From the NCBI GenBank assembly GCA_964016885.1, contig OZ024757.1, positions 28,458,001-28,522,000 on the forward strand: DNA of 64,000 bases. The letters are read 5' to 3'. The notes beneath the pieces are model-generated. The model made no database searches, was not told the DNA's origin, and saw nothing but the letters and a program-made list of their open reading frames with translations. The DNA is from Eledone cirrhosa. Lineage: Eukaryota. The translations under genes were made by a program, and so were the position numbers. This document shows positions 39,013 to 59,541 of this stretch, piece after piece (position 1 is the stretch's first letter; each line of letters opens with the position of its first letter).

Positions 39013-39217
39013 CATTATTCCGGGTTGAATCGGAGGTAACCACAGTAAGTGAGGTACTCAATACATAGCAGAATATAAAAGTTTTAATATAGATGAGATT
39101 CTACAGGACTAGAACTGTTTCATTCTTTAGAAATCATCAGGAATCTAGCTCAGATTCCTGATGATTTCTAAAGACTGAAACAGTTCTAGCCCTGTAGAAT
39201 CTCATCTATATTTAAAC
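39013..39217 (-). mobile_element. HHR-bearing fold-back element, family H1 copy 1
   Basis: Arms 39081-39146 / 39152-39217. HHR on both strands (39096-39146 minus, 39152-39202 plus): AGATTC-CTGATGA-TTTC TAAA GA.T-GAAA-CAG TTCTAG.C CTG-TA-GAATCT. Confidence 0.85.
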
Positions 39218-39685
39218 TATATATATATATATATATATATATATATATATATATATATATATACATGTAACCACTTATATTTACCATAATAAGGATAAAT
39301 ATATTCTTTATAAAAGCCAGTCTTCAGTCTTTTTACTTTCAAGTTTCCCTGTGTTGACCCTGTGGGAATAGGAGCTACTCCAGAGTAACAAGACACAAAT
39401 ATGACCGTAGCAAATCATTATCATCATTGTTGTTGGTATTCAACATCTATTTTCCATACTTGCAATCGGTTAAACTGGCTGTCTTGTACTGAGGAGGTCA
39501 CACTGATCGGGTGACCATGTCTTCTCATATGCTCCAGTTTGGGCTTGGTCTTATACGACTGGTTGGTATGTGTGTGTGTGTGCGCCAGCATGGAAAAATG
39601 GACTTTAAATGAAGATGATTATGATGGTAACAATAATAATACTAATAATGATAATGCACATATGCATATTTATTTATATATGTAT

Positions 39686-40022
39686 GGAGGCACATGGCTT
39701 AGTGGTTAGAGCATTGGCCTTGCAATCGAAAGGTTGTGATTTCAATTCTCGGACCGGGTGATGTGTTGTTTCCTTGAGCAAGACACTTTATTTCACATTG
39801 CTCCAGTTTATCCAGCTGTAGAAATGAGATGATAGGGACTGGGGTCCCTATCATTCCACTGCAAAGTGGTCGTGGAGGTGCCACGGCAAAAAAGCACCCA
39901 GCACTCACTGTAAATGAGGTTGGTGTTAGGAAGGGCATCCAGCTGTAGAAATCAAGCCAGAATCAGTTCCCGTCCCACCCTTGCAAGCAGGGAAAAAGCG
40001 GACGTAAAATGAAATGATGATG
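39686..40022 (+). mobile_element. Full-length tRNA-headed CORE-type SINE (family B)
   Basis: Head GGAGGCACATGGCTTAGTGGTTAGAGC, CORE-like CCTTGAGCAAGACACTTTATTTCACATTGCTCCAGTTTATCCAGCTGTAGAAATG, then GGTTGGTGTTAGGAAGGGCATCC and a (TGA)n tail. Confidence 0.8.
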
Positions 40023-40100
40023 AAATCATGATGTATATATATCTACAGGTATGAATCTATATACATGTATCTATATATGTGTGTATATATATATATATAT

Positions 40101-40408
40101 ATATTGAAAGGATAACAAGGACAATTGATTACTCCTTCATTGCATTTATTGGTAGGTGACGCTATAGCATTTTAAAGGGTCCGTCTAACCACCGATTATT
40201 GAGTCGGGTAGGATCGATACAGATCGAACCTTGAGCTGATCAGTGGCGAAACACGCGTCACCTACCAATAAATGTAATGAAGGAGTAATCAATCGTCCTT
40301 GTTATCCTTTCAATATATTACACTCTGTATAGCTCTACACCTCATCACAGAAGTGAACCTAAACATTGAGTGCTCACCTGCAGTAACTCCAAGTTACACC
40401 CCCTGGAT
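40101..40408 (+). mobile_element. Fold-back element with a degenerate HHR
   Basis: Arms 40101-40162 / 40255-40316. GGTAGG...GAAAC ACGC GTC ACCTACC keeps stems I and III but no intact CUGANGA. Tail carries TTGAGTGCTC. (TA)n flanks. Confidence 0.7.
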
Positions 40409-40430
40409 ATATATATATATATATATATAT

Positions 40431-40726
40431 CATCATTATCATCATTTTACATCCAATTTTCCGTGCTTGCAAGGGTAGGACAGGAACTGATTCTGGCTTG
40501 ATTTCTACAGCTGGATGCCCTTCCTAACACCAACCTCATTTACAGTGAGTGCTGGGTGCTTTTTTGCAGTGGCACCTCCATGACCACTTTGCAGTGGAAT
40601 GATAGGGACCCCAGTTCTATCATCTCATTTCTACAGCTGAGTAAACTGGAGCAATGTGAAATAAAGTGTCTTGCTCAAGGAAACAACACATCACCCGGTC
40701 TGAGAATTGAACTCACAACCTTTCGA
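40431..40726 (-). mobile_element. Family B SINE, near-identical inverted partner of 39686-40022
   Basis: Reverse-complement match over about 295 bp. Lacks the first ~40 nt of the head. Confidence 0.85.
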
Positions 40727-41969
40727 TATATATATATATATATAATGTGTGTGAAGAAAGGTGGAGAAATAATATGGACAACATGGAATTATAAGACTAG
40801 ATGAGATCCTTTAATTTAGATAGGAAACAATAATGGTAGGGCACAGATCATTGGAGTGTAATACTTGGCTATTTTACATGACAGTCAAATGATAGCTGTG
40901 TATGTGTGTCTTTGTATGGGAGTGAGACACAACACACCACTGGGAATTGAACACATAAGTTTGTAATCTGTAATGATGAGTCAAACATCGTAGAACTTAA
41001 TATTTATAATAGTGTCAATGAAGCTTAATGAACCTTAATGAACAGTCGCTTTGCTGGAACATCATTGCTGTGTTGTAAGAAAATGAATATATCCTTATAT
41101 ATACACATGTATATATATATATATATATATATATATATATATATATATATATATATATATATATATATATATATATATATATACATGTATATATATATAT
41201 GTATGTATATATATATATATATATCTATATATATATATATATAATATATATGTATTATATTATATATATATATATATATAAATATATACATGTATATATA
41301 TATATATACATGTATATATACATTGTATATATATATACACACACACATATATATATATATATATATATATATACACACATATATATATATATATATATAT
41401 ATATATATATATATACACACATATATATATATATACACACATATATATACACATATATATACATATATATGTATATGTATATATAATGTGTGTCTGCGCA
41501 TTTGTCTGAATTTGTGTGTATGTATGTGTATATGTACATAATCTTTATAAAACAGTGCACACACACACACATATATATACATAATATATACACATATATA
41601 TACATAATATATACACATATATATATATACATATATATATATATACATATATACATACACACATGCATGACATGCATCACTACCACCATCTCAACCACCA
41701 CTATCCCAAACATCACTACCATCACTATCACTGTTGCCACCACCACCACCAACACCACAAGCACCACCACCACAAGCACCACCACCACCACCACCACCAC
41801 TACCACCACCACCACCACTGTGACAAACTACATTCATAGACCTACCTGGTGTTGAATTAAGATTGATTAGCCATACTGTATCCAATTTCATTACAATTCT
41901 TCTTGTTTTAAAGACACTGAAACTCTCCTACATCATCATCATCATCGTCATCGTCATCATCATCATCAT

Positions 41970-57594: not shown

Positions 57595-58200
57595 TCAGGT
57601 CACCAGTTGGTGCTACTGGTAACATGTACCCCAGTACAACCTGTCTCATGGTCGGGTCGTTGGCGACTAAACTGGCAACCCCACCAAGGTTTCTTGGTGA
57701 GGAGGGTCACTTTGGACATCCTGCAGGACTAAAAACAAAACCTGTTAAAGGGCAAAGGAGCTCTTAAGAGTCAATGGCCATTCAAAATCACTGGGAGAGA
57801 TGACCCCTTAGCCTTTGTCAAGGCAGAATTCTAGGAGAAGGAAAACTCTGATATAACACCTGCAACCCTGACGGTATCCAATGATGTTGACTTGTTCTTC
57901 TTTTTGGTAAATATCATCTTGGTTAAGAGAGTGGTCTGGCTTTGTGCAGTGCCTTTGCTCACTATAAAAGCTTCAAGGCACAGGCATTGCTTTATATCTG
58001 GAGATCTCTCTGCACTTGTCGTTACATGGTACCATGGGCCCAGCACTATGTGTCAATAATTGTCACAAGTGTAGTGTTTTTACCAGAATTTTCAAGTCGC
58101 AGGCTGGACTAAAAAGTCACACTCGTTCAGCGCATCGGTAGGGGTTCTCCTACATGGATATAAAGTAGTGGCCGTACTCGAAAACGAGTTGGCAGCCACC
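57595..58200 (+). mobile_element. Non-coding interspersed element, probably RTE 5'-UTR-related, in (TA)n
   Basis: Homologous to 28185-28735. Contains TAGGAGAAGGAAAACTCTGA, a motif I recall from RTE 5' regions. Confidence 0.6.
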
Positions 58201-58213
58201 ATATATATATATA

Positions 58214-58591
58214 CAATGATATTAAATAAATGGAAACTATATTTATAAAACCATATTTATTTTATTATACATATTTCAAGGGTACCAAGACAACATTGGT
58301 ACGCTTTCATCAGATAAAATACAAAGATTGGAAATTCACTGTGAATTTCCAGTCGTTAAGGTATGATTTTCATGGGTACGTCTATTTATAAAACAAACTT
58401 TGTATTTTATCTGATGAAAGCGTACCAATGTTGTCTTGGTACCCTTGAAATATGTATAATAAAATAAATATGGTTTCATAAATATAGTTTCCATTTATTT
58501 AATATCATTGAATATTTACTCCAGTAAGCTGTTGTGTGCTTTAAATATTTATGTTTGTCGGACTTCCAACAAATTAAATACAACTTCTACT
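58214..58591 (+). mobile_element. HHR-bearing fold-back element (family H2)
   Basis: 113-bp arms 58214-58326 / 58398-58510 with one mismatch, tail to 58591, (TA)n flanks. Confidence 0.85.
58404..58465 (+). ncRNA. Type-I hammerhead ribozyme (mirror copy on the minus strand at 58259-58320)
   Basis: ATTTTAT-CTGATGA-AAGCGTACCAA TGTTGTC TTGGTACCCTT-GAAA-T ATGT A-TA-ATAAAAT. Confidence 0.8.
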
Positions 58592-58866
58592 TATATATAT
58601 ATATATATACATGTATGTATATATATATATGTATATATATATGTATATATATATTTATATATGATTGTCATGTATATATATATGATGGTAGTAGATTGTT
58701 GGAATCGTTTATGCATCAGACAGAAGTGTGTGCATCATTTTCTTATTCTGAGTTCAAATAGTATGTTACATTATATAAAGCAAATGAGGTCTGGGTTCTT
58801 GTTAATTTGGATAAAAAAGAAAATACATACATCCACATATCTATCTATCTATCTATCTATCTATAA

Positions 58867-59275
58867 GACACCTTTCTCTCCGGCCAACAACTGATTCTTT
58901 TTTTCAAATACCACTTTGGAAGAAGAATCAGGATGGAGAGAGAGGTGCTGTACCCCAGCAAGTTTTACGAAAGGTGGGTGAAAGTGGCGAGAATGGCCCG
59001 AGTGAATGGGCCTTCTCTCTATATCAGCCTGTAGGTTGAGGAAAAGGAGGAGGAGAGGAAAGGAGTACAAGCTCTTCGTACTCCTGGAGATGAGGGTTGC
59101 ACATTTTTTTTCGGGGGTATGTGTTACCCATATAAACTGTCTCCCTCTATTGGGGAAAATCGACTAACTTTTAAATTCCATCTGTGATAACATTTTACAC
59201 GTTTTTATTGTATGTAAACTTCCCCCTTTGTATTTGTCCCCTTCTTTTGTGCCCCTGTGGCTAATAAAGAAATAT
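58867..59275 (+). mobile_element. 5'-truncated Tx1/L1-type LINE: ORF2 C-terminus (58867-59034) and 3' UTR
   Basis: Intact frame DTFLSGQQLILFFKYHFGRRIRMEREVLYPSKFYERWVKVARMARVNGPSLYISL*, with the RIR.E...F...W pattern of Tx1-type C-termini. 3' UTR ends AATAAAGAAAT. (TATC)n on both sides. Confidence 0.7.
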
Positions 59276-59360
59276 ATCTATCTATATATATATTGGCAAC
59301 ATGACCCTCCCAATGTATAATAATTATATATATATATATATATATATATATATATATATA

Positions 59361-59541
59361 TTAGATTCTACAGGACTAGAACTGTTTCATTCATTAGAAA
59401 TCATCAGTGATTCCTGATGATTTCTAATGAATGAAACAGTTCTAGTCCTGTAGAATCTCATCTATATTAAAACTTTTATACTCTGCTATGTATTGAGTAC
59501 CTAACTTACTGTGGTTACCTCCGATTCAACCCGGAATAACG
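59361..59541 (+). mobile_element. HHR fold-back element family H1 copy 4 (HHR at 59409-59457)
   Basis: GATTC-CTGATGA-TTTC TAAT GAAT-GAAA-CAG TTCTAGTC CTG-TA-GAATC. 5' inverted partial copy at 59363-59407. (TA)n flanks. Confidence 0.85.

Follow-up and report, generated by a model that had tools for sequence, protein, structure and literature searches.

H1, a Hydra-clade Penelope-like element family of Eledone cirrhosa with hammerhead mini-copies and a 78-bp hammerhead satellite

The literature has not settled what role hammerhead ribozymes play in Penelope-like elements (PLEs) (PMC8557442, PMC11167929). Compensatory changes inside one genome have already been published for PLE hammerhead families (PMC4209133). 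Elements of the Hydra clade are recognized by an RWK-type motif, DKT and a CxCX5C linker, by CxxC and CxH next to E and N, by the lack of CCHH, and by insertion into (TA)n (PMC8557442). In the anole element Poseidon_Ac, two internal priming sites on an uncut template are used at AT-rich targets; cleavage is not needed, and the ribozyme cuts only with its protein (PMC11167929). In a rotifer pseudo-long terminal repeat (pLTR), a TATA box and an initiator have been noted, and palindromic copies have been interpreted as self-priming products (PMC3846280). A route from a PLE end to a tandem repeat has also been proposed (bioRxiv 10.64898/2026.07.22.740005). The present analysis concerns H1, a hammerhead family seen in a window of 64,000 bp from Eledone cirrhosa (GCA_964016885.1, contig OZ024757.1, positions 28,458,001 to 28,522,000, forward strand).

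By its sequence, H1 is the hammerhead-bearing pLTR of a young Hydra-clade Penelope-like retrotransposon, and it is a new family of a known kind. The explanation of the whole that we consider probable is that its small copies are twin-primed run-off products of uncut RNA from this pLTR, joined back to back in (TA)n.

Complete units were reached by following long copies. They consist of a pLTR, an open reading frame (ORF), a long 3' region and a second pLTR; the pLTRs are in direct orientation at loci L065, L229 and L231 and inverted at L061 and L230. The hammerhead motif lies 181 nucleotides (nt) ahead of an intact reverse transcriptase (RT)/GIY-YIG ORF (ATG at +182 to +184, counted from the first stem I base as +1) and is present again behind it. 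Four intact ORFs of 713 amino acids are near-identical (702-708 of 713 residues), indicating that subfamily A is young. They carry the RT motifs D..YRDDG and the marks RWR, DKT, a CxCX5C linker (CNCLNKEAC), CxxC-E (CDLC-E) and N..CxH (N..CMH). Pfam gave a weak GIY-YIG match (E = 2.4e-4, below cut-off, and 0.13 with the whole protein) and did not match the RT domain. Among the 120 best of 1,407 homologs, W is conserved in 118, D in 120, K in 120, T in 106, the linker cysteines in 118-119, and CDLC-E and N..CMH in 117-118. The endonuclease is without CCHH, and two cysteines in its core are not conserved among these 120 homologs. Features of endonuclease-positive (EN+) PLEs are present, namely pLTRs around the ORF, an inverted 5'-truncated copy and a one-sided tail, and insertions are flanked by (TA)n. 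A 23-nt stretch of the tail, searched as an exact pattern, occurs 16,926 times in the 3.0-Gb genome, whereas a control pattern has no match. Placement in the Penelope/Poseidon clade was rejected, as the protein lacks CCHH, has the linker zinc finger and carries DKT rather than DKG.

Subfamily A has a long TA/TG microsatellite within its own 3' region (L004, L010, L011, L065, L229), and its unit is about 5.0-5.3 kb compared to 4.0 kb in family D. Family D (L160, L161, L164, L165) is about 72% identical over the N-terminal 120 amino acids; it carries A at N7, a free core position, and its loop III palindrome, ACUAGU, is longer. Promoter, hammerhead and tail were also found in a few contigs of a second organism.

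An earlier note on the window had described four H1 copies, at 39013-39217, 50851-51018, 52381-52529 and 59361-59541. All four are present, with a common core (CTGATGA...GAAA...TA), stem III CAG/CTG and a tail of about 85 nt, at 81-98% identity (E down to 5e-61). The predicted cut falls between +45 and +46, which agrees with the GUA site at 52440 that the note had named. In three of the four, a tailed arm stands head to head with a shorter tail-less arm, forming a palindrome in (TA)n; this arrangement had gone unmentioned. The copies resolve into the following features.

39013..39146, reverse strand: tailed arm of subfamily A, with +1 at 39146, stem I AGATTC/GAATCT, core at 39140, predicted cleavage after 39102 and tail to 39013.
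39152..39218, forward strand: inverted tail-less arm of the same insertion, from +1 to about +67, with a full stem I and two point changes, ending in (TA)n.
50851..50888, reverse strand: inverted tail-less arm with a decayed core and an internal deletion, stem II TTC-CTTC-GAA intact.
50891..51016, forward strand: tailed arm from +6, with the stem I 5' strand lost, stem II broken and 3' strand GAAGCC.
52381..52395, strand not assigned: short remnant at the junction that probably derives from an inverted arm.
52396..52529, forward strand: tailed arm of subfamily B, with +1 at 52396, GGCTTC/GAAGCC, core at 52402 and predicted cleavage after 52440.
59361..59407, reverse strand: inverted tail-less arm from +7 to about +54, ending in (TA)n.
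59409..59541, forward strand: tailed arm of subfamily A from +2, with five of six stem I pairs and predicted cleavage after 59452.

Small copies were sampled by their tails, which makes the sample independent of upstream content. The first set was the 60 top matches; the second was 63 of the first 64 position-ordered matches of the 23-nt pattern, the remaining one having been examined before (one locus is counted twice in the second set). In the first set, 39 copies start at -2 to +10 and none at +43 to +48. In the second, 30 start at -2 to +10, where the background rate predicts 2.3, and two at +43 to +48. Tail-less arms behave similarly: 26 of 36 start in +1 to +10 and only two upstream of +1. 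At the other end, tailed arms stop at about +135 and tail-less arms at about +67. A TATA-like box is found at -29 to -31 in all seven reference copies, which represent four subfamilies, and CCAAT at -82 to -86 in five of the seven; the spacer in between differs at 9-12 of 22-24 positions (about 40-55%). The pile-up of 5' ends at +1 to +10 together with the TATA box suggests that +1 is the transcription start site. Among the loose ends listed in public contigs, possibly from the source sample, +4 is the commonest. Neither tail-anchored set showed a footprint of cut RNA used as template at +46, and stem I microhomology accounts for the single copy that begins there.

The probable order of events is as follows. 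Transcription would start at +1, the first base of stem I. Both target strands would be nicked and primed, and two complementary DNAs (cDNAs) would be primed at internal sites near +135 and +67 on uncut RNA. Both would run off the predicted RNA 5' end at +1 and join back to back through overlaps of 1-5 nt in the (TA)n target. The ribozyme may cut weakly, probably as a dimer or with help from a protein, and cutting would be unnecessary for making these copies. Stem I pairing would be kept by selection in a few master elements. Twin internal priming fits the published anole model in its two internal starts, uncut template and AT-rich targets (PMC11167929).

Compensatory change in stem I was the main claim of the earlier note. 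Both of its stem I states exist, but the full six pairs occur in just two window copies, AGATTC/GAATCT at 39146-39096 on the reverse strand (in both arms) and GGCTTC/GAAGCC at 52396-52446. The inversion junction falls in the stem I 5' strand of the copies at 59414 (TGATTC, five pairs) and 50892 (CAGTAC, one pair), so the window supplies two data points rather than four. The chance that four changes among 12 stem I bases make two restored pairs is 0.0034, a post hoc figure. Of the loop II variants that had been listed, CTTC lies in a broken stem II (TTTG-CTTC-AAAT) on the tailed arm of copy 50892, and its intact form is on the inverted arm only.

More copies were available elsewhere in the genome. 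Among 170 distinct core matches in the examined loci, 56 have native upstream sequence, and 114 were excluded because junctions or flanks replace it. The 56 comprise 32 with AGATTC/GAATCT, 11 with AGCTTC/GAAGCT, six with GGCTTC/GAAGCC and seven singletons. The state AGCTTC/GAAGCT is one compensated step from each of the two subfamilies described earlier and is also found in the distant family D. Pair 3 in 18,029 motifs is A-T in 12,946 (about 2,600 of them from the 78-bp satellite described below), C-G in 4,864, A.G in 143 and C.T in 76, giving 17,810 matched versus 219 mismatched (1.2%). Pair 1 in 51 copies is G-C in 28, A-T in 14, G.T in three, A.C in three and other in three (junction bases included; 19 copies have a native -1 base). 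Both sets of figures count copies, not evolutionary events. On a tree of 44 tailed copies, built with stem I columns left out, the pair 3 change falls on one branch (100/99). In 26 distinct rows, 16 cells changed on both sides, a value reached in none of 500 shuffles. Within +1 to +51, all 5-9 differences between subfamily representatives fall on compensated stem I pairs, N7 or loops. Selection on stem I pairing and the core in source elements is therefore likely, as judged from few events. Genome-wide comparison upholds the covariation, which reflects only about 2-4 historical events, by way of the third state AGCTTC/GAAGCT. The four window copies do not amount to the "direct evidence" claimed for them. 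With so few independent events, a phylogeny-aware test of the R-scape type would have little power. Taken alone, the H1 covariation is real but modest, published in principle and ordinary.

The motif has the type I hammerhead core CUGANGA / GAAA / UH with three helices, and 95% of cells are paired. Loop III is palindromic (near-invariant CUAG), and a dimer is predicted to form a duplex there of -12.8 to -15.2 kcal/mol, compared to -1.4 alone, which is in line with the dimer activity proposed for such motifs. Selected pairing is not proof of cleavage, and ribozyme activity is predicted only.

Several results weigh against the account given above. Fourteen of the 63 position-ordered copies extend upstream of -2, indicating that read-through or circular templates also exist, and three subfamilies have a CAG at -1 to +2 that looks like a splice acceptor. 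Part of the asymmetry between palindrome arms could stem from later central deletions. Compensation amounts to about 2-4 events, with the history of pair 1 left at one to three changes. In the 26 distinct rows, the measures based on pair counts (460/500) and on pair types (500/500) were no better than shuffles, and no compensation was seen in stems II and III. The G10.1-C11.1 closing pair of helix II is replaced by U.U (columns 14, 25), invariant in 58 of 58 rows. Natural hammerhead variants without the G10.1-C11.1 pair exist. No Rfam hammerhead match was obtained for the window (best 150 of 293 rows) or for the motif. Stems II and III are not predicted to be stable, with pairing probabilities of 0.01-0.11 and 0.04-0.44, respectively, and the two copies with a full stem I have folding z-scores of -0.27 and -0.70. 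In D. virilis, Penelope starts upstream of an intron from an internal promoter that is TATA-less (PMC2377424); the TATA/+1 layout of H1 is therefore not general.

Some of these points favor a rival in which stem I is a cap-shielding or protein-binding structure with a catalytically dead core, or in which the paired changes come from template-switch correction instead of selection. Stem I is the only stable helix (pairing probability 0.89-0.98), and both the U.U pair and the missing footprint of cut templates agree with a dead core. However, no catalytic core base differs across the four subfamily representatives while N7 and loop II do, and the predicted loop III duplex also speaks against this rival. 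We regard this rival as unlikely.

The palindromes could also come from fold-back self-priming of one cDNA or antisense template, as interpreted in rotifers (PMC3846280), or from later central deletion, with the boundary at +1 set by an enzyme stalled at structure. Junction overlaps of 1-5 nt are present in 23 of 35 palindromes, and the arms make a perfect hairpin (z = -19.8). However, in nine of 36 palindromes the tail-less arm carries at least 10 nt that are absent from the tailed arm, which disfavors fold-back, and copies without an inverted arm stop at the same place. Reverse transcription proceeds 3' to 5' on its template. A stalled enzyme would thus meet stem I at +51, not at +1. This origin seems rather improbable, and two separately primed cDNAs are preferred.

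A tandem array is probably a second outcome of the same pLTR. The lead to it was a joint in public contigs that steps back 77 bases. The satellite pattern has 2,480 forward versus 15 reverse genome matches, which points to one array (positions come from the first 100 matches listed).

C28:30,496,726 to about 30,873,730: 78-bp head-to-tail hammerhead array of 377 kb, about 4,800 units if continuous.

Reading covered about 11 kb from the left end of the array, about 22 kb from its right end and ten samples of 2 kb. The unit corresponds to -14 to +63 of subfamily A and thus has neither TATA box nor tail. A tailed arm in a TA target lies at the left edge and faces into the array. The array is therefore most likely the amplified tail-less arm of one palindromic insertion, grown by DNA-level duplication. 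Filler at the junction is similar to the +60 region and may have allowed the unit to duplicate. Among 384 sampled units (251 distinct), 286 have the core, and in 161 of these stems I and III are kept as well. Selection on the core was not seen in these 384 units (variation of 0.026 versus 0.019 at free positions), and a later insertion was duplicated within the array; growth therefore looks DNA-level and neutral. For the satellite only, the alternative is that selection maintains it as an active retrozyme, copied from an RNA circle that had cut itself. The share of units with intact core and stems would agree with this, as would the separate origin of similar short tandems with 80- and 64-bp units. 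The variable core, the single giant locus with a duplicated element inside it, and a unit that lacks TATA box and tail speak against it, and we consider it very doubtful.

Other tandems were noted. On C1, 7.6 units of the 78-bp type (L216:7254-7843) probably moved from C28. Smaller H1 tandems have separate 80-bp and 64-bp units (L228:3912-4145; L218:2600-2837), which suggests repeated jumps between about -14 and +63. At its right end (L221:1731 onward), the C28 array gives way to a tandem of about 420 bp with another hammerhead-like motif, and beyond it (L221:7578 to L213) is an 80-bp satellite of at least 120 kb that is unrelated to H1.

Least likely of all is a 3' splice site at the 5' pile-up, for which D. 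virilis Penelope, with an intron that stops at helix I, is a precedent (PMC4209133): a T-rich run precedes CAG at -1 to +2 in subfamilies A, C and D, but many copies retain +1/+2 and some -1, which splicing would remove, subfamily B has CGG there and lacks the AG yet shows the same pile-up, and 10 of 11 non-inverted copies listed share no common upstream exon, the remaining one being a native copy.

Returning to a start site at +1, a more specific claim joins the parts, and we hold it to be somewhat better than an even chance. The hammerhead would be the first 51 bases of the capped messenger RNA, with +1 both the start purine and part of the first stem I pair, and self-cleavage would decap the transcript. 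About half of tens of thousands of insertions would be twin-primed run-off copies that record the start site in DNA. From one of them the 377-kb satellite, with its approximately 4,800 ribozyme units, would have arisen, and the founder would still be attached. If true, this would explain why such genomes fill with tiny ribozyme palindromes, and it would suggest that cleavage is a decapping or circularization switch, not an insertion step. The satellite would be a direct example of the proposed route from a PLE end to a tandem hammerhead repeat, its birth caught in the act. H1 offers intact near-identical ORFs, three stem I states and a sharp genomic read-out (start at +1, priming near +67 and +135, uncut template). 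A literature search of incomplete coverage turned up no report of the H1 family, of a hammerhead that begins where PLE transcription starts or of a hammerhead satellite with a 78-bp unit. The apparent start-site run-off signature and the array with its presumed founder attached are added here and are the parts worth testing.

The window holds other elements. Hammerhead-like motifs of other families are at 58266-58458, 48030-48307 (both back-to-back pairs), 22909-22955, 63739-63777, 14819-14874 and 38923-38952, the last being part of a palindrome that directly adjoins the copy at 39013. Just before the fourth copy, 59290-59325 is the short end of another element; nearly the same sequence terminates a different GIY-YIG element with its own hammerhead (locus L067). 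A transfer RNA-like stretch at 50430-50487 scores 38.9 bits with the Rfam tRNA model, above the gathering score, and is possibly the head of a short interspersed element. Rfam microRNA matches in the window were rejected as artefacts of TA/TG repeats.

Compared to Hydra-clade EN+ PLEs with a C-terminal endonuclease, such as Hydra-1_Obim (PMC8557442; compared by description only), H1 has the same single ORF with RT and C-terminal GIY-YIG. It also shares RWx, DKT, the CxCX5C linker, CxxC-E, N..CxH, the pLTR hammerhead, (TA)n targets, the inverted truncated copy and the one-sided tail. H1 units are longer (4.0-5.3 kb, with a long microsatellite-rich 3' region, versus generally less than 3 kb), as is the tail (about 67 nt versus a typical 30-40). 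The PLE hammerheads described in PMC4209133 have the same type I core, palindromic loop III, compensatory families within one genome, opposite-strand pairs and many single truncated copies. H1 differs in helix II (3 bp, with U.U for G10.1-C11.1), helix I (6 bp) and helix III (4 bp plus an 8-nt loop), and our reading ties helix I to a start site, which the available part of that paper does not.

Non-LTR retrozymes and hammerhead satellites (PMC7229834; bioRxiv 10.64898/2026.07.22.740005) are likewise head-to-tail type I repeats with a proposed PLE-end origin. Their unit is about 300 bp, whereas that of H1 is 78 bp; the H1 array has about 4,800 units at one locus, shows no sign of core selection and keeps its presumed founding PLE insertion attached. 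Poseidon_Ac (PMC11167929) belongs to another clade. For H1 the evidence is genomic, and both of its putative priming sites are in the 5' untranslated region, 45-115 nt before the ATG. The two would be alike in that two internal priming sites define the tail, targets are AT-rich and the RNA template is uncut. In Poseidon_Ac, 5' truncation of the template shortens the product, which matches the run-off view of H1.

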